42,559 nucleotides of DNA from a virus (Duplodnaviria; Heunggongvirae; Uroviricota; Caudoviricetes), in IMG/VR virus record IMGVR_UViG_2872698443_000008; one strand, written 5' to 3'. Every line of letters starts with the position of its first letter. Position 1 is the first letter of the stretch. The translations under genes were made by a program, and so were the position numbers. This document shows positions 2,755 to 41,191 of the stretch, in pieces. The notes under the pieces were generated by a model. That model did not search any database, was not told where the DNA came from, and saw only the letters and a program-made list of their open reading frames with translations.

Positions 2755-2860
2755 AACGGAGTTGCACTTGAACGGCAATTGCGCTGAGCTCAATTGCCGC
2801 CAATGCTTGGTCGTTAACGTCTGCTCCTGGCACAGGGCTGCTGTTGCAGCCCTGACAACC

Positions 2861-3076
2861 TTAGACTTCAATCGATTCAGAGATCTCTAACGCATCATCG
2901 ACTTCAATGCCCAGATAACGGAATGTGCTTTCCAGTTTCTTATGACCCAACAGAAGTTGAATCACCCGAAGATTCTTGGTCAGCGGACAATAGGTGCAAC
3001 GCCATATTGAACCCTTAAGACTAAAGTGGACCGATATAGTAAGCGTTACACTGACCCGTTGCCAGCATCGAAATGC
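2861..3076 (-). pseudogene. Tyrosine recombinase C-terminal remnant (no start codon, ~70 codons open)
   Basis: Minus-strand translation reads ...TKNLRVIQLLLGHKKLESTFRYLGIEVDDALEISESIEV*, resembling the LLGH...Y box II region of integrases/Xer recombinases. Upstream frame closed by a stop at 3077-3079. Confidence 0.4.
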
Positions 3077-3344
3077 CTAAGCTACGAAAACTCTTTGACG
3101 GACATAATGTTCCTCATGTTTGCCACATGTCTCCGATTGAGCACAACTATAGTCTGCTGATGAGACTAATTATGGCACTGAGCAGACCTGCTCGCTAGGC
3201 GAGATCCGCTGTGAGCGAATTGCAGAGGTCTCGAATATGCTTGATAATAATGCTTGAAGATATAATTGGTATGAGCCTGAAAATTTATTTTTAAAGAATT
3301 ATTAAATACTGCCGATGTTAATAATTATACTAAAAAAAAGGAAC

Positions 3345-26304: not shown

Positions 26305-26581
26305 CCGCAACAGCCACTTTGATATCTTCCTGGGTTCTCTGTGACTCCAGTGCGATCTGCTGTTTTGCATGCTGGTTAACCTCTATAACTGTATTGACGA
26401 TTTGCAGTGATTGCAGGACGTTACGGGTAATGGCTGTTGCAGATTCAACATTTTGTACAGCCTCATCAGCACGTTTCTTTTCGTGCTGATATTTGCTGTA
26501 GTAGTGGTTGGCAGACCAGATGAAAGAACCGATGACAGTAAAGAAGAATGCAGCGATAACCAGCTTATAGCTCAACTTCAT
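26189..26581 (-). CDS. Rz-like inner-membrane spanin
   Basis: 130 aa, N-terminal TM then coiled region; follows endolysin. Confidence 0.7.
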   Translation of the reverse strand: MKLSYKLVIAAFFFTVIGSFIWSANHYYSKYQHEKKRADEAVQNVESATAITRNVLQSLQIVNTVIEVNQHAKQQIALESQRTQEDIKVAVADDDCASRPVPAAAADRLRKFANGLRERSGGTTASQPDF

Positions 26582-35229: not shown

Positions 35230-35568
35230 CTATTTCCCTGAATTTACGACGAAACTGTTCGAGCGGGCTGAAGCACTCATGCTCATAACCTTCGCGGAGG
35301 TAGATAACCCGTTGTGTTTCCGGCTCCCAACGAATGACTCTGACGGGCACTCCGTAGTGATCTTTGAACCAGCGGTTAACTTGTCGCAAAGGACTGTCTC
35401 CTTCTGCCGGTTGAAATCACCCACAGCCCACTCTGCAAAGCTGTGGGTTACAATTTCCCTGTCACCTGGTACATTTACTGCATAGCAATACTCCACCTTC
35501 GCTTTTCCACCCGGTACAGGAAGCGCAATCAGTTGCGAGCGACGGTAGTGTGTTGTTAAACTGTTCAT
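35230..35568 (-). CDS. Hypothetical protein
   Basis: 112 aa ORF translationally coupled to flanking genes. Confidence 0.4.
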
Positions 35569-36128
35569 GCGTTAGTTTCTCCACAGTCACGACACGCCAC
35601 GGCGCCCGGAGCTGCACACTCGCGGGCGTCATTACTTTCTGAAATGCAAAAAATTTTGTAGACCAGTGCTGCATGCTCCTGCAGCTTCGAAATTGAGAGG
35701 TACAGCTCGTCGTTAATTGCTGTCTTCTCATGCGGTTCCACTACACCGTCTTCAATTGCTGAACGAATCTGTTTTGAATAACTGCCGATCTGTTCAATGA
35801 CTTCCAGCAGGCGCTGGTTAATATCGGCGTTGTCCACATCCTCGACGTCAGGAAGAGACACAAAGACGCCATTTGCAGACTGCGCCACAGCGTCAGCAAT
35901 GAAGTGAGTTCCACCAGCACGTTGCAAAATCATTGCCCATCCCAGCGGGAAAATCTGATCGCCATCGGCACGAAGGCGGTTAAATAATGCGTTCTCTGTT
36001 ACATCCAGCCAGTCAGCTGCTTCAGCGTAACCACCCGGCAACTTTGCGATAGTTTTTCTGACAGCTTTCACGTACCACTCAGGCTGTTTTTCTACTTTCC
36101 AGTGATGCTTACCCACGGTTAGCCTCAT
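35565..36128 (-). CDS. CII-position protein, tentatively YdaT-like
   Basis: 187 aa immediately downstream of the Cro/YdaS-like gene; assignment by position and loose resemblance only. Confidence 0.45.
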
Positions 36129-36159
36129 CGTTCTGTGGTTAAAAATTGAAAGTGTTCTG

Positions 36160-36360
36160 CTAATCTTTCGGATAGATATCCGGTCTTAAGTCAGATTTCG
36201 TAATTGCACCTGACGTGCATTGCTCAAGTTTTTTAGCCAGCACAAAACTGGCTTTTTTATAGCCATTGAAAACCAGCCGTAAGTAGCCAGGTGTTGAGCC
36301 AACTTTTCCGGCCAACTCGCCCTGCTGTTCTTTGGTTAAAGAGTCCCAATACGCTTTCAT
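36160..36360 (-). CDS. Cro/YdaS-like HTH regulator
   Basis: 66 aa from internal ATG at 36360, MKAYWDSLTKEQQGELAGKVGSTPGYLRLVFNG...ITKSDLRPDI; divergent from the repressor gene. Confidence 0.7.
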   Translation of the reverse strand: MKAYWDSLTKEQQGELAGKVGSTPGYLRLVFNGYKKASFVLAKKLEQCTSGAITKSDLRPDIYPKD

Positions 36361-36363
36361 ACA

Positions 36364-36435
36364 ATATGTACCTCCGGTGTACATATTACATGATTGAAAT
36401 GAACCTTCAAGATACTTGTACCTTAACGGTACAAG
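36364..36435. promoter_or_regulatory. Operator region between the divergent cro-like and cI-like genes
   Basis: Two palindromes with GTAC cores: ATATGTAC-ctccggt-GTACATAT (36364-36386) and CTTGTACC-ttaac-GGTACAAG (36415-36435). Confidence 0.55.
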
Positions 36436-36450
36436 GGTTTTAATTTCGTT

Positions 36451-37125
36451 ATGAAAACAATCCATGACATCCGGCGGTCTAACGCCAGAAAACTGAGAGA
36501 TGGTGTTGGCGGGAATTCTTCCTTTGCCACTATGATTGATCGCGAGCCAACCCAGACCAGCAGGTTTATGGGAGATGGTGCTACTAAAAATATCGGTGAC
36601 AGCATGGCACGACACATCGAAAAATGTTTCGACCTGCCTGTCGGATGGCTCGATCAAGAACACCAGACAACGAACATCACAAAAAAACCTGATGTTTCAA
36701 TCACTAATAAACAAATCACATTAGTCCCTGTCATATCATGGGTACAGGCCGGAGCATGGAAAGAAGTTGGATATTCTGAGGTTGATTTGAGCACAGCAGA
36801 AACGTATCCCTGCCCTGTACCCTGTGGGGAAATGACTTATATCTTGCGGGTGATAGGTGATTCAATGATTGATGAGTACCGCCCGGGAGACATGATTTTT
36901 GTCGATCCTGAAGTACCTGCCTGCCACGGTGACGACGTTATTGCATTGATGCACGATACAGGCGAAACCACCTTCAAAAGGTTGATAGAAGATGGGACAC
37001 AGCGTTATCTCAAAGCGTTAAACCCAAACTGGCCTGAGCCTTACATTAAGATCAACGGTAATTGCTCTATAATTGGTACAGTGATTTTCTCAGGAAAACC
37101 AAGAAGATACAAAATCAAAGCCTAA
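36451..37125 (+). CDS. CI-like repressor with S24 (LexA-type) autocleavage domain
   Basis: 224 aa; C-terminal ...RVIGDSMIDEYRPGDMIFVD...TTFKRL... (Ser/Lys dyad context). Confidence 0.8.
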   Translation: MKTIHDIRRSNARKLRDGVGGNSSFATMIDREPTQTSRFMGDGATKNIGDSMARHIEKCFDLPVGWLDQEHQTTNITKKPDVSITNKQITLVPVISWVQAGAWKEVGYSEVDLSTAETYPCPVPCGEMTYILRVIGDSMIDEYRPGDMIFVDPEVPACHGDDVIALMHDTGETTFKRLIEDGTQRYLKALNPNWPEPYIKINGNCSIIGTVIFSGKPRRYKIKA

Positions 37126-37139
37126 TCAATGTTTATGAA

Positions 37140-37160
37140 CCTGCTTCGGCAGGTTTTTTT
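37140..37160 (+). terminator. Intrinsic terminator after the repressor gene
   Basis: CCTGC-TTCG-GCAGG followed by TTTTTTT. Confidence 0.7.
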
Positions 37161-37164
37161 ATAC

Positions 37165-37197
37165 TTGACAATGTACCTTTGAGATACATAATGTACC
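37165..37197 (+). promoter_or_regulatory. PL-like promoter with operator-like repeats
   Basis: TTGACA (37165-37170), 17-nt spacer, ATAATG; two copies of AATGTACC overlapping, sharing the GTAC core of the 36364-36435 palindromes. Confidence 0.5.
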
Positions 37198-37296
37198 CAA
37201 GCGAAACAACGAACAGGCAGGACGCCCACGAAGTAGCCGCCTGGGGCATATGAAGTCCAGGATGATTCGTTAGCAACAAAAAAGCGCCCTACAGGA

Positions 37297-37314
37297 CGCT
37301 TAGCTCTTTAACAA
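37297..37314 (+). promoter_or_regulatory. boxA-like antitermination motif in the early-left leader
   Basis: cgcttaGCTCTTTAACAA matches the boxA consensus (GCTCTTTAACAA as in rrn boxA; CGCTCTT in lambda nut). Confidence 0.35.
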
Positions 37315-37359
37315 TCTGGTCCCCATCAACAAGTAACTGATAACTTGAGGAGGTGTGAA

Positions 37360-37566
37360 ATGCACAAAACAGAACCCAAAATCGTCGCGCCTGGCTACAC
37401 AGATGAGGAAATTTATGAGTGGATGACAAAGAAGCTGGCAGCTATAAACCAGCTTCGTGAAGTGCTGTCTTATCGACAGGAAACAATAGACTCCTTAAAA
37501 AAACTGGATCAGGAAATCACAGTTTTATCACAGGATGTTACTTTAGATATTGTGCAGACAAATTAG
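37360..37566 (+). CDS. Small hypothetical early protein (68 aa)
   Basis: ATG at 37360 preceded by GAGGAGG (37347-37353); first ORF after the PL-like promoter. Confidence 0.5.
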   Translation: MHKTEPKIVAPGYTDEEIYEWMTKKLAAINQLREVLSYRQETIDSLKKLDQEITVLSQDVTLDIVQTN

Positions 37567-37972
37567 GATCCCATTCATTTTCGTCAAAATTATCAAAGTG
37601 ATGAATTTGTGATCTCCAGTCTCGATAATCTAAAAATTTCTGGGCGGTTACGCTTATTTTATCAAGTGTGAGTTCATCCTGAATTGAAAGAAGAAGTTCA
37701 TCAAATTTCATCTCATTAATCTGTTTTGGCATCCAGTGATGCTTCATCAGAATAAGGTGAACCAGAGCCTTTTTCCCATTCAACTGATTATAGGGAGTGC
37801 CGAATTTCTTCCGGTGCTCATGTAAGACAAGGTCCAGAAGAGTAAGTAATGTTGCCCTTGATTCAACTTTGCTTATTTCGACTGATGACACTACCCCACT
37901 GATTTCAATGCCCCGATACTTTCCAACATTTTCACAGTGGGATTTGTACAGCGTGTAGATATTACCGGACAT
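37538..37972 (-). CDS. Low-GC hypothetical protein transcribed against the early-left operon
   Basis: 144 aa ORF, AT-rich, AAAGGA before ATG; direct repeats immediately upstream. Confidence 0.55.
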   Translation of the reverse strand: MSGNIYTLYKSHCENVGKYRGIEISGVVSSVEISKVESRATLLTLLDLVLHEHRKKFGTPYNQLNGKKALVHLILMKHHWMPKQINEMKFDELLLSIQDELTLDKISVTAQKFLDYRDWRSQIHHFDNFDENEWDPNLSAQYLK

Positions 37973-37987
37973 TTCTTTTCCTTTTGC

Positions 37988-38039
37988 GTTGTTGGGGATA
38001 ACCAGATTAACCGAATCCTTGTTGTTGGGGAATAACCAG
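37988..38039. repeat. Two direct repeats upstream of the antisense gene
   Basis: gttgttggggataaccag (37988-38005) and gttgttggggaataaccag (38021-38039). Confidence 0.6.
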
Positions 38040-38099
38040 GTCCACCTCGCCTGATGTGGCTAAAAGCAGGCACATAACAGCTAAGTATTTTTAACCAGA

Positions 38100-38470
38100 G
38101 AGAATCCTTAGCGTTGTGGTGAATGCGGCTCAGCGCACGCGGGTTAAGGTTGAGGCTGACAGTCGACCTTCTGTGGATACCCACCCGTCTGGTGTGCAAC
38201 CTTCGCCAGGCACCGGGAGGCACCCGGCACCACAACTTTATGCTGTGTGTAGTCCTGGAGGTACCAGTTTGTACCCTTGCTTCCGGCTGGTACCGTCCTT
38301 TTTACAAAACAGAGAAGAGCATCACCGGACGACGGGCTCATAACCCAATCCATCCGGGCGGCTGCCACCGCAGGTGTTCTTCTCTGTTTTGTGGAGAAAC
38401 TAACCGCCCCTACGGGGGCATTCATGGAAATGTAATTGACTCAATAATCGCCGGACGGTGAGGGCTTCCT
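38100..38470 (+). other. GC-rich non-coding region with nested inverted repeats (candidate structured RNA)
   Basis: No protein-like ORF on any strand. TTGTGGTG (38114-38121) pairs with CACCACAA (38228-38235); AAGGTTG/CAACCTT nested inside; AAAACAGAGAAGAG (38301-38314) pairs with CTTCTCTGTTTT (38377-38390). Confidence 0.3.
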
Positions 38471-38516
38471 TTTACCCGAATTCAGCGCGGTGCAGCGCAT
38501 ATACGTGGAGAACAAA

Positions 38517-39053
38517 ATGTCATTTATTAAAACTTTTTCCGGGAAGCATTTTTATTATGACAGGATAAATAAAGACGACATCGTTATTAACGATATCGCG
38601 GTTTCCCTTTCAAATATCTGTCGCTTTGCAGGACATCTTTCACACTTCTACAGTGTCGCCCAACATGCGGTGCTTTGCAGCCAGCTGGTGCCGCAGGAAT
38701 TTGCTTTTGAAGCTTTAATGCATGATGCAACAGAAGCATATTGCCAGGACATCCCCGCACCACTGAAACGACTTCTTCCTGACTATAAACGTATGGAAGA
38801 AAAAATAGACGCCGTAATCCGTGAGAAATACGGGTTACCTCCTGTTATGAGCACGCCAGTGAAATATGCCGATCTCATTATGCTGGCAACCGAACGCCGC
38901 GATCTCGGGCTTGATGATGGCTCTTTCTGGCCTGTACTGGAAGGTATCCCGGCAACAGAGATGTTCAAAGTGATTCCACAGGCACCGGGCCATGCCTACG
39001 GGATGTTTATGGAACGTTTTAACGAGTTATCGGAGTTACGCAAATGCGCATGA
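38517..39053 (+). CDS. HD-domain phosphohydrolase (YfdR-like 5'-deoxynucleotidase)
   Basis: Start at MSFIKTFSGKHFYY; H...HD motif (AQHAV ... ALMHDATEAY). Confidence 0.75.
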   Translation: MSFIKTFSGKHFYYDRINKDDIVINDIAVSLSNICRFAGHLSHFYSVAQHAVLCSQLVPQEFAFEALMHDATEAYCQDIPAPLKRLLPDYKRMEEKIDAVIREKYGLPPVMSTPVKYADLIMLATERRDLGLDDGSFWPVLEGIPATEMFKVIPQAPGHAYGMFMERFNELSELRKCA

Positions 39054-39711: not shown

Positions 39712-40061
39712 TGGAGCCATACAGCCTCACACTCGATGAGGCCTGTCATTTTCTCAAGATATCCAGACCGACTGCCATTAACTGGATACGCACAGGGCGT
39801 CTTCAGGCAACACGTAAAGATCCCACTAAGAATAAATCTCCTTACCTCACAACACGACAAGCCTGCATTGCGGCTCTTCAGTCTCCGCTGCATACTGTCC
39901 AGGTGAGCGCGGGTGATGGCATAACAGAGGAAAGAAAATGTCACTCTTCCGCAGAGGTGAAATATGGTACGCCAGTTTCACATTGCCGAACGGTAAAAGA
40001 TTTAAACAGTCTCTTGGAACAAAGGACAAAAGGCAGGCGACAGAACTCCATGACAAGCTAA
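39711..40061 (+). CDS. xis: Excisionase (AlpA/Xis-type HTH)
   Basis: Start at [36 protein letters not shown]; 116 aa frame overlapping the integrase start by about 120 nt. Confidence 0.7.
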
Positions 40062-41101
40062 AGGCTGAAGCATGGCGGGTCAGCAAACTTGGTGAAATAC
40101 CTGATATAACGTTCGAGGAAGCTTGTGTCAGGTGGCTTGAAGAGAAAGCACATAAAAAATCACTGGACGATGACAAAAGCCGGATCGGATTCTGGCTTCA
40201 ACATTTCGCAGGAATGCAACTAAGAGACATTACTGAATCAAAAATTTATTCAGCAATGCAGAAAATGACGAACCGGCGTCATGAGGAAAACTGGAAACTC
40301 AGGGCAGAAGCATGCAGAAAAAAAGGGAAACCTGTTCCAGAATACACGCCAAAACCAGCGTCCGTTGCAACGAAGGCTACGCATCTTTCATTTATAAAGG
40401 CCCTACTAAGAGCCGCAGAGCGTGAATGGAAAATGCTGGATAAGGCACCAATTATTAAAGTGCCTCAACCAAAGAATAAACGGATCCGCTGGCTGGAGCC
40501 CCATGAAGCACAAAGGCTGATTGATGAATGTCCGGAGCCATTAAAGTCTGTTGTTGAATTTGCACTGGCAACAGGCTTAAGACGCTCGAACATCATCAAC
40601 CTTGAATGGCAACAAATAGATATGCAGCGCCGGGTGGCATGGATAAACCCGGAAGAGAGTAAATCAAACCGCGCAATTGGCGTTGCGCTGAATGATACTG
40701 CATGTCGCGTATTGAAAAAACAAATCGGGAATCATCACCGTTGGGTATTTGTGTACAAGGAAAGCTGTACCAAACCAGACGGAACGAAAGCGCCAACAGT
40801 AAGGAAGATGCGGTATGACGCAAACACAGCCTGGAAAGCGGCGCTGAGACGGGCTGGTATTGATGATTTCAGATTTCACGACTTGAGACACACCTGGGCA
40901 AGTTGGCTGGTTCAAGCCGGAGTCCCGTTGTCAGTGTTACAGGAAATGGGAGGCTGGGAGTCTATCGAAATGGTTCGTCGATATGCTCACCTTGCACCTA
41001 ATCACCTTACCGAACACGCACGGCAAATAGACTCGATCCTGAACCCATCGGTCCCAAATTTGTCCCAGTCAAAAAATAAGGAAGGTACTAATGATGTGTA
41101 A
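39938..41101 (+). CDS. int: Tyrosine integrase (P22 Int type, thrW-specific)
   Basis: 387 aa, [40 protein letters not shown]...; catalytic region ...[20 protein letters not shown]...VRRYAHL; ends 15 nt from the tRNA. Confidence 0.95.
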
Positions 41102-41115
41102 CTTATTGATTTAAA

Positions 41116-41191
41116 TGGTGCCGATAATAGGAGTCGAACCTACGACCTTCGCATTACGAATGCGCTGCTCTACCAACTGAGCTATATCGGC
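41116..41191 (-). tRNA. thrW: tRNA-Thr (anticodon CGU)
   Basis: Reverse complement reads GCCGATATAGCTCAGTTGGTAGAGCAGCGCATTCGTAATGCGAAGGTCGTAGGTTCGACTCCTATTATCGGCACCA. Confidence 0.9.

Follow-up and report, generated by a model that had tools for sequence, protein, structure and literature searches.

A predicted lambda-type immunity switch of the e14/SfV group, with GTAC-core operators and a conserved structured leader RNA

The virus record IMGVR_UViG_2872698443_000008 of IMG/VR (Caudoviricetes) consists of 42,559 nucleotides of DNA, referred to below as the window, and it includes an immunity region in which a cro-like and a cI-like gene diverge from a 90-bp intergenic region. The cro-like gene (36160-36360, minus strand; 66 aa) is an open reading frame (ORF) of the ymfT/croE type, whose product matches PHROG 35, transcriptional repressor, with an E value of 3e-15 and gives weak Pfam matches to YdaS_toxin and HTH_3. 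The cI gene (36451-37125, plus strand; 224 aa) is of the ymfK/cohE type, and its product contains a Peptidase_S24 domain (Pfam, E 1.5e-26) and falls into PHROG 4, also described as transcriptional repressor. An intrinsic terminator and an early promoter, here called PL, follow cI, and the resulting order, i.e., cro (minus), operator region OR, cI (plus), terminator and PL (plus), is the arrangement of phage lambda. The sites that probably control these genes are described here, together with a structured RNA that the PL transcript is predicted to carry at its 5' end.

With regard to its identity, the region belongs to the e14/SfV immunity group (ymfK/cohE - ymfT/croE), within which cI, cro and the operator DNA are near-identical. 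By BLAST, the 1.3 kb from 36100 to 37400 are 98.8% identical to Shigella phage SfIV and 98.2% identical to SfV, and phages cdtI, Ayreon and 2H10 and a dozen Stx2c-converting phages share about 96% identity with the same DNA. In RefSeq E. coli genomes, the repressor is named ymfK (LexA family protein) and the cro-like gene ymfT (YdaS family helix-turn-helix, HTH). Of 5426 complete E. coli genomes, 1324 (24%) contain the segment 36340-37215 with at least 90% identity. The cryptic prophage e14 of K-12 MG1655 matches the window letter by letter over the OR region, the terminator, PL and both sites of the left operator (OL). Parts of the region already carry labels: the SfV GenBank record has a "putative operator region" at 26377-26445 (69 bp), corresponding to 36366-36434 of the window, and calls the hairpin after cI a "putative rho-independent terminator", and the Ayreon record annotates the terminator after cI and a promoter at the position of PL. 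The individual operators and the OL sites are annotated in none of the GenBank records examined.

The window is an SfV/SfIV-like prophage. An integrase gene (39938-41101, plus strand) is followed, 15 nt beyond, by a tRNA-Thr(CGT) gene (41116-41191, minus strand), the interval being 39938-41191. Since the integrase adjoins the tRNA-Thr gene thrW, the prophage end is placed at thrW and not at icd, where e14 is integrated, and the combination of a thrW end with an e14-type immunity region makes this a mosaic prophage. Mosaicism also explains why the immunity DNA is essentially that of e14, SfV and SfIV whereas the neighboring modules differ.

In the AlphaFold model of CI (mean predicted local distance difference test score, pLDDT, 77), a disordered linker connects four helices at the N-terminus to a C-terminal domain that is beta-rich, and the best match of the model in the PDB is the full-length lambda repressor, 3BDN (E 1.3e-8). 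By sequence, the PDB search matches the C-terminal domain of lambda CI; Rep, the repressor of Salmonella phage SPC32H, is weakly matched by residues 1-76. The cleavage site of lambda CI has its counterpart in an aligned VQAG motif, the QAG of which is conserved in an alignment of relatives (see below), as are Ser138 (GDSM) and Lys176 (FK). The protein is, from these features, predicted to join a lambda-CI-type HTH domain at the N-terminus to a C-terminal S24 (LexA-like) autopeptidase domain with an Ala-Gly cleavage site and a Ser/Lys dyad.

Operators and promoters

A first-pass annotation, made from the letters of this DNA alone, had placed two palindromes between the divergent genes, and both are present as exact TGTAC-N7-GTACA dyads. 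The first is formed by ATATGTAC (36364-36371) and GTACATAT (36379-36386) and can be extended to AATATGTAC-N7-GTACATATT (36363-36387); the second, made of CTTGTACC (36415-36422) and GGTACAAG (36428-36435), is a perfect palindrome of 8+5+8. The two copies of AATGTACC said to overlap the promoter behind cI also exist, at 37170-37177 and 37190-37197, but they are the left halves of two 17-bp dyads, OL1 and OL2, rather than direct copies, and a middle, weaker OR site at 36400-36416 had been missed. The sequence and its relatives together support five 17-bp operators with the consensus TGTACC-N5-GGTACA, three at OR (starting at 36367, 36400 and 36417) and two at OL (37172 and 37192).

OR1, TGTACCTCCGGTGTACA (36367-36383), is an exact TGTAC-N7-GTACA that covers the predicted start of the early promoter PR, and its center is the Shine-Dalgarno sequence of cro (GGAGG, minus strand). 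OR2, TGAACCTTCAAGATACT (36400-36416; repeat family D1), is the weaker site, with 9 of 12 positions in agreement with the consensus; it overlaps the -35 element of PR, and its center lies at -43 of the predicted start of PRM, the promoter of cI. OR3, TGTACCTTAACGGTACA (36417-36433), agrees at all 12 positions and is found between the predicted -35 and -10 elements of PRM, with its center at -26. On the other side of cI, OL1, TGTACCTTTGAGATACA (37172-37188), occupies the spacer of PL from -28 to -12, and OL2, TGTACCCAAGCGAAACA (37192-37208; 10/12), runs from the last T of the PL -10 element over the start, from about -7 to +10. This is the same placement that OR1 has with respect to the predicted -10 element of PR.

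PL (37165-37192, plus strand) is reported by the promoter scan with a score of 11/12. Its hexamers are TTGACA (37165-37170) and CATAAT (37187-37192), separated by 16 nt, its start is predicted at about 37199, and it is conserved in relatives. The promoter had been described as TTGACA-17-ATAATG: a near-consensus promoter is indeed there, but that -10 element is one base off. As for the promoters at OR, they were read by eye and are assigned from the sequence and from relatives. The predicted PR (36383-36410, minus strand) has TTGAAG at 36410-36405 and TAATAT at 36388-36383, with a 16-nt spacer and a predicted start at about 36376, and its position is kept in relatives (Edwardsiella phage EPP-1 has TTGCAG-16-CATAAT). 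The predicted PRM (36416-36444, plus strand) has TTGTAC at 36416-36421 and TTTAAT at 36439-36444, with a 17-nt spacer; both promoters score 8/12. The cI ATG comes 6 nt after the PRM -10 element, with no Shine-Dalgarno sequence, and most relatives have TNTAAT at 6-8 nt before this ATG. The message of cI, with a predicted start at about 36451, therefore probably has no leader, which is also the case in lambda.

The clean terminator proposed between cI and PL was likewise recovered, by the scan, at 37137-37163 (plus strand). Its stem-loop, GAACCTGC-TTCG-GCAGGTTT (37137-37156), begins 12 nt past the cI stop codon and is followed by T7. Relatives have differing terminator stems at the same place, and these are always followed by a T run that abuts the -35 element of PL.

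How unusual are such sites within the window? With up to one mismatch, TGTAC-N7-GTACA occurs 4 times in 42.5 kb against 0.69 expected, a number reached by 1 of 100 shuffles, and three of the four matches are within this 0.85-kb stretch. When the longer consensus TGTACC-N5-GGTACA is allowed up to two mismatches, all five matches in the window fall within 36367-37208. One of these five, at 36816-36832 (plus strand; TGTACCCTGTGGGGAAA), is a half-site only, located inside cI (CPVPCGE codons), and is probably fortuitous. Matches with three mismatches occur at chance level across the window; OR2 is a site of this kind, so it is not callable from the window alone and its assignment rests on the comparison with relatives.

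For this comparison, relatives of the repressor were collected and a diverse set was aligned, and 79 genomic loci encoding relatives were fetched, to which Hafnia phage yong2 and Edwardsiella phage EPP-1 were added. The footprint set, with about 36 relatives, consisted of 34 genome loci and the 2 phages and reached as low as about 42% protein identity. Every relative with a retained N-terminal domain, over a range that extends from E. coli to Serratia, Proteus and Morganella, has the three OR sites at fixed start-to-start offsets of 0, +33 and +50, and in the footprint set two OL sites recur at an offset of +20. A group from Halomonas and Salinicola likewise has three OR sites, in a slightly different register.

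The sequences of the sites are also kept. In relatives, OR1 reads TGTACCTCC-NN-RTACA, OR2 is mostly TGAACC-N5-GGTACT (10/12) or similar, with TGTACC in some, and OR3 is TGTACC-N5-GGTACA. OL1 is either TGTACC-N5-GGTACA or ends in -GATACA, with the same information profile as OR3, and OL2 has a conserved left half and a weaker right half (TGTACTTATAAGATACA in EPP-1). In OR3 and OL1, positions 1-6 and 12-17 carry about 2 bits of information, as compared with 0.1-0.4 bits in the five central positions. Conserved half-sites around a variable center are the signature of a site for a dimeric HTH protein and not of a hairpin, the arms of which would co-vary. In most Enterobacterales relatives, the 3' side of cI has a differing terminator hairpin and then directly the block TTGACA-ATGTACC-N5-RRTACATAATGTACC, with OL1 in the spacer and OL2 starting from the last T of the -10 element.

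A central question is which protein reads these sites, and the best computational evidence is that their sequence tracks the recognition helix of CI. Relatives with the helix REPTQxSR keep the GTAC dyads down to 42% identity, with Vreelandella as an example. Those with TNSSYLSQ have TTAGCA/TGCTAA-type repeats instead, and those with REPSYISR have TTACCC-ATGGGTAA-type palindromes; no GTAC is found in the upstream 130 nt of 18 of the 18 examined loci with either of these two helices. Sites that determine the specificity of immunity would be expected to show such co-variation together with such conservation, and this supports the view that this repressor is the protein that binds them.

Could the GTAC dyads instead be targets, mainly or exclusively, of the Cro-like protein (YmfT, with a YdaS-family HTH) or of a different phage regulator, e.g., the CII-like CP76 protein, with CI recognizing another sequence? 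A second HTH protein is encoded beside OR, the best site, OR3, sits where Cro acts first in lambda, and it is from sequence that the sites are assigned to CI. This alternative is nevertheless improbable: PL, directly behind cI, carries the same dyads, which is what a maintenance repressor would require, and it is the CI recognition helix that the site sequence follows across relatives. To our knowledge, CI and Cro share their operators in all characterized lambdoid switches, so that binding by Cro would be additional to that by CI and not an alternative to it.

Still less credit can be given to the idea that the palindromes act as nucleic-acid hairpins, i.e., as a terminator or attenuator before cI, or that they are clustered restriction sites of the RsaI/KpnI type. 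Although the scan lists 36415-36435 as terminator-like (CTTGTACCTTAACGGTACAAG followed by GGTTTTAATT), the arms are invariant in relatives (TGTACC/GGTACA) and the center alone varies, whereas a hairpin would be expected to show compensatory changes in its arms, as the real terminator after cI does. In addition, the conserved half-site is 6 bp, longer than GTAC, and the spacing to the promoter hexamers is fixed. A chance resemblance of GTAC cores in AT-rich promoter DNA, in favor of which one could cite the chance-level frequency of matches with 2-3 mismatches across the window, is refuted by the comparative data and has practically no probability left, given that exact and one-mismatch matches are clustered and about 6-fold above expectation, that all five matches with up to two mismatches lie within 0.85 kb and that the sites are conserved across genera. 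A LexA box, CTGT-N8-ACAG, was also considered and does not fit the GTAC dyads.

A model of the switch

The first-pass annotation had proposed an OR/OL-like arrangement that defines the immunity specificity, and this proposal is supported by the gene order, the S24/lambda-like CI, the conserved sites and the helix co-variation. We put at roughly 0.85 the probability that the region, a member of the e14/SfV immunity group, works as a switch between lysis and lysogeny of the lambda type. The fold, the sequence features, the conservation and the co-variation of sites and helix are the observations behind this reading, from which we infer CI binding, the order of occupancy, the activation of PRM and the leaderless start.

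In the proposed mechanism, a CI dimer would bind the 17-bp dyads TGTACC-N5-GGTACA. With OL1 occupied in the spacer and OL2 at the start site, RNA polymerase would be excluded from the strong PL and the early-left operon would be off. On the other side, OR1, which covers the PR start and the cro ribosome site, and OR2, at the PR -35 element, would together silence PR, and this would keep cro, the cII-like gene and the replication genes off. CI at OR2 would stand at about -43 of PRM, just where CI of lambda sits when it activates its own PRM. OR3, inside the PRM core, would mediate negative autoregulation, and the Cro-like protein would likely bind there first. The terminator between cI and PL would insulate PL from read-through of the cI transcript. 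Upon induction, DNA damage would lead to RecA-stimulated self-cleavage of CI at Gln-Ala-Gly, and both arms would be derepressed. Indirect in vivo support for the mechanism comes from the "YmfT iModulon" of K-12, a published, transcriptome-derived grouping in which both e14 arms (ymfJ, xisE and intE; ymfT, ymfL, ymfM and others) are grouped with the SOS genes sulA and recN (PMC12132413); such a grouping would result if a repressor that is cleaved in the SOS response acted at both OR and OL.

A number of points weigh against this reading. The hexamers of PR and PRM, at only 8/12 each, are below the threshold of the promoter scan and were not reported by it. OR3 is the best match to the consensus, whereas OR3 of lambda is its weakest site; if affinity follows the consensus, OR3 would be the strongest site here and the lambda order of occupancy would not apply. 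Moreover, OR2 and OR3 abut, with centers 17 bp apart as opposed to 23-24 bp in lambda, and OR1 and OR2 are 33 bp apart, so that any cooperative geometry must differ from that of lambda. The OL sites are only two. Lastly, data on binding, footprints or reporters, or any experimental dissection of the operators, were not found in the searchable literature, the coverage of which does not include the genome papers of SfV (2002) and e14 (2004) and thus the extent of such work in them. Literature searches with the operator and leader sequences gave no match, and for operator work on SfV and e14 they returned general mentions only.

The switch is ordinary, of a very common E. coli/Shigella prophage type, and it represents a further specificity within the lambda CI/Cro family in a region that, as such, was already annotated. 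What is gained is a concrete operator model (TGTACC-N5-GGTACA; three sites at OR and two at OL) for an immunity type found in about a quarter of sequenced E. coli and carried by e14 of K-12, the Shigella serotype-converting phages, and the Stx2c and Cdt-I phages. The model predicts which of these prophages should confer immunity against each other; beyond annotation, the switch matters little.

A structured leader RNA in the PL transcript

The early-left operon offers a second subject. Immediately behind PL, at 37206-37274 (plus strand), lies the sequence of a conserved structured leader RNA of 69 nt, with the helices P1 (37208-13/37266-71), P2a (37216-18/37224-26) and P3 (37240-44/37257-61); P1 begins about 9 nt after the predicted PL start. 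By BLAST, positions 37205-37275 alone match about 50 phages with unrelated immunity genes, including SfII, ST64B, mEp237, mEp460, SPN3UB, ZF40 and YeP1, along with phages of Klebsiella, Citrobacter, Aeromonas and Providencia, and a scan of IMG/VR for the exact core gave at least 120 loci.

The consensus was derived with RNAalifold from an alignment of 38 diverse copies. The closing stem P1 comes in three sequence classes (GCGAA/UUCGC, GUCAUC/GAUGAC and CCACC/GGUGG), P2a is a small invariant helix, and the P3 hairpin has at least 8 different stem sequences. Compensatory changes, on both sides of the pair, occur in 11 of 14 pairs. The paired fraction of the alignment cells is 94.9%, a value that none of 500 shuffles attains; it is 71% in the shuffles and 24-43% with slid partners. 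A few G-U pairs fit the plus strand only. The fold is compact and junction-type, with about 35 nearly invariant unpaired nucleotides, and the nearly invariant unpaired segments include CCCACGAAGUAGCC, the P3 loop GGCAUAUGAA and the AUGA before P1. The structured RNA itself is well supported by this covariation and would represent an undescribed class of phage leader RNA.

A covariance model built for the leader finds a single copy in the window (91 bits). The leader is present in 1865 of 5426 complete E. coli genomes (34%), including e14 of K-12, where it lies upstream of ymfJ, and it is never annotated. Of 106 distinct leader contexts, 57 have a promoter that scores at least 9/12 and whose end precedes P1 by 10-21 nt, and an upstream ORF on the same strand is present in 88 contexts, with at least 57 different N-termini and with the S24 GDSM motif in 48. 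The promoter position and the diversity of these ORFs argue that PL transcripts of many immunity types begin with the leader. The lytic T5-like Providencia phage PR1 has a further copy in its terminal repeat, preceded by an early promoter and followed by CGCTCTTTAA. The Stx2c phages and Ayreon have the same cI and another leader, without the 69-nt element, which shows that this element is a module of its own, outside the immunity determinant. A Klebsiella spallanzanii prophage (locus L013, 2223-2284) contains a truncated copy, the 3' half only, fused directly to OL2, and this indicates deletion or recombination inside the element. In Hafnia phage yong2 (locus L004, 2582-2655), a tRNA-Gly(CCC) gene occupies the place in the PL leader where the window has the structured RNA.

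Is this RNA a known one under another name? An Rfam 15 scan of 35500-38600, with E values up to 1, gave no match at OR, OL or the leader, and elsewhere in this interval only weak matches to STnc100 and STnc310. The covariance model of the leader has no match in HK022 or HK639, the record of the latter annotating a putL-like RNA, and identity with the put elements of these phages was set aside for this reason. C0293, a known small RNA (sRNA) of e14, adjoins icd and not PL. The RNA svsR is described as similar to C0293 and as located at the 3' end of cI (PMC12803456), and neither of the two corresponds to the leader. Hammerhead and kink-turn readings of the GAUGA and CGAAG motifs were inspected by eye, and the strand order at the junction does not fit them.

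Downstream of the leader, the PL operon has further features. A hairpin at 37282-37301 precedes an rrn-type boxA (a putative NusB/NusE site), GCTCTTTAACAA, at 37303-37314 (plus strand; the two together spanning 37282-37314). The boxA is an exact match to the consensus GCUCUUUAACAA, where 0.15 matches with up to one mismatch would be expected, and it is this sequence consensus that suggests its role. The hairpin/boxA module occurs in a subset of relatives only, being missing in e14 of K-12 and present here. On the minus strand, the same hairpin reads as an intrinsic terminator, and in that direction (37301-37282) it lies downstream of a 144-aa gene of PHROG 5286 (37538-37972, minus strand), which is antisense inside the PL operon.

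The PL transcript would run for about 0.9 kb without an ORF on the plus strand before it reaches xis and int (plus strand), and the untranslated stretch covers 37567-38490. Inside it, at 38083-38305 (plus strand), there is a sub-threshold Rfam match to STnc100 (38.4 bits, with a gathering score of 47; E 4e-6), and a similar STnc100-like sequence is found in the long noncoding PL leader of Stx2c phages (locus L006, about 2850-3130). Rho-dependent termination would be expected in a stretch of this kind. On the plus strand downstream of PL, the window contains only weak candidates for intrinsic terminators, and the argument for antitermination therefore rests on the long untranslated stretch and not on a clear terminator. 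Among the ORFs downstream of PL, no family match to an N-like arginine-rich protein was found in Pfam or PHROG, and SfV, SfII and SfIV are reported to lack N (PMC3851460).

What might such a leader do? The leading hypothesis, which we regard as possible rather than likely, is that it is a cis-acting antitermination RNA, analogous and not homologous to put, perhaps working with the downstream boxA. It would then act in cis on the transcribing host RNA polymerase and render it resistant to both Rho-dependent and intrinsic termination, and the modified enzyme would be able to cross about 0.9 kb of untranslated RNA, antisense gene included, to reach xis and int. The model for this comparison is putL of HK022, a phage that lacks N; it measures about 70 nt and forms the very beginning of the PL transcript (PMC9378689). 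Elements of the HK022 put type are characterized by read-through of terminators in cis, for which the zinc-binding domain of the beta' subunit of RNA polymerase is required. The size, the place at the 5' end of the PL transcript and the setting in lambdoid phages without N are shared with putL of HK022 and HK639, whereas there is no similarity in sequence or model. The topology differs as well, as putL has two consecutive long stem-loops and the leader described here has a closing stem around two internal hairpins, and with a single copy per phage there is no second, putR-like element. The computed evidence agrees equally well with other functions, in which the RNA would serve as an sRNA or sponge, sense a ligand as a leader, or act as a stability element.

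If the antitermination proposal is true, it would add a third route to early antitermination in lambdoid phages, beside N/nut and put. In any case, the leader is an unannotated and strongly covarying RNA in a third of E. coli, including K-12, and it sits exactly where phages place their antitermination devices.

Comparison with lambda and 933W

The immunity region shares with lambda the gene order and the divergent PR and PRM, and PL is predicted to be repressed through the same sites. Both repressors have two domains (HTH and S24), with the lambda repressor being the best PDB match of the one studied here. In both cases the operators are 17 bp long and partially symmetric, three of them are at OR, OR2 lies at about -43 of PRM, and the cI message starts, probably in the present case, without a leader.

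The differences concern sequence and geometry. The operators here read TGTACC-N5-GGTACA, there are two OL sites as opposed to three in lambda, and OR2 and OR3 abut, with OR1 and OR2 being 33 bp, or three helical turns, apart. The site nearest PRM is the strongest match in this region and the weakest in lambda. In addition, OL and OR are separated by 0.8 kb, compared with 2.3 kb in lambda, and no rex genes are found between them.

With respect to the number of sites, a closer parallel may be the Shiga-toxin phage 933W, the lambdoid switch of which reportedly has three OR but two OL sites (Koudelka and co-workers, 2004). Its repressor and operator sequences are said to be unrelated to those described here, and the parallel is offered as a lead only.

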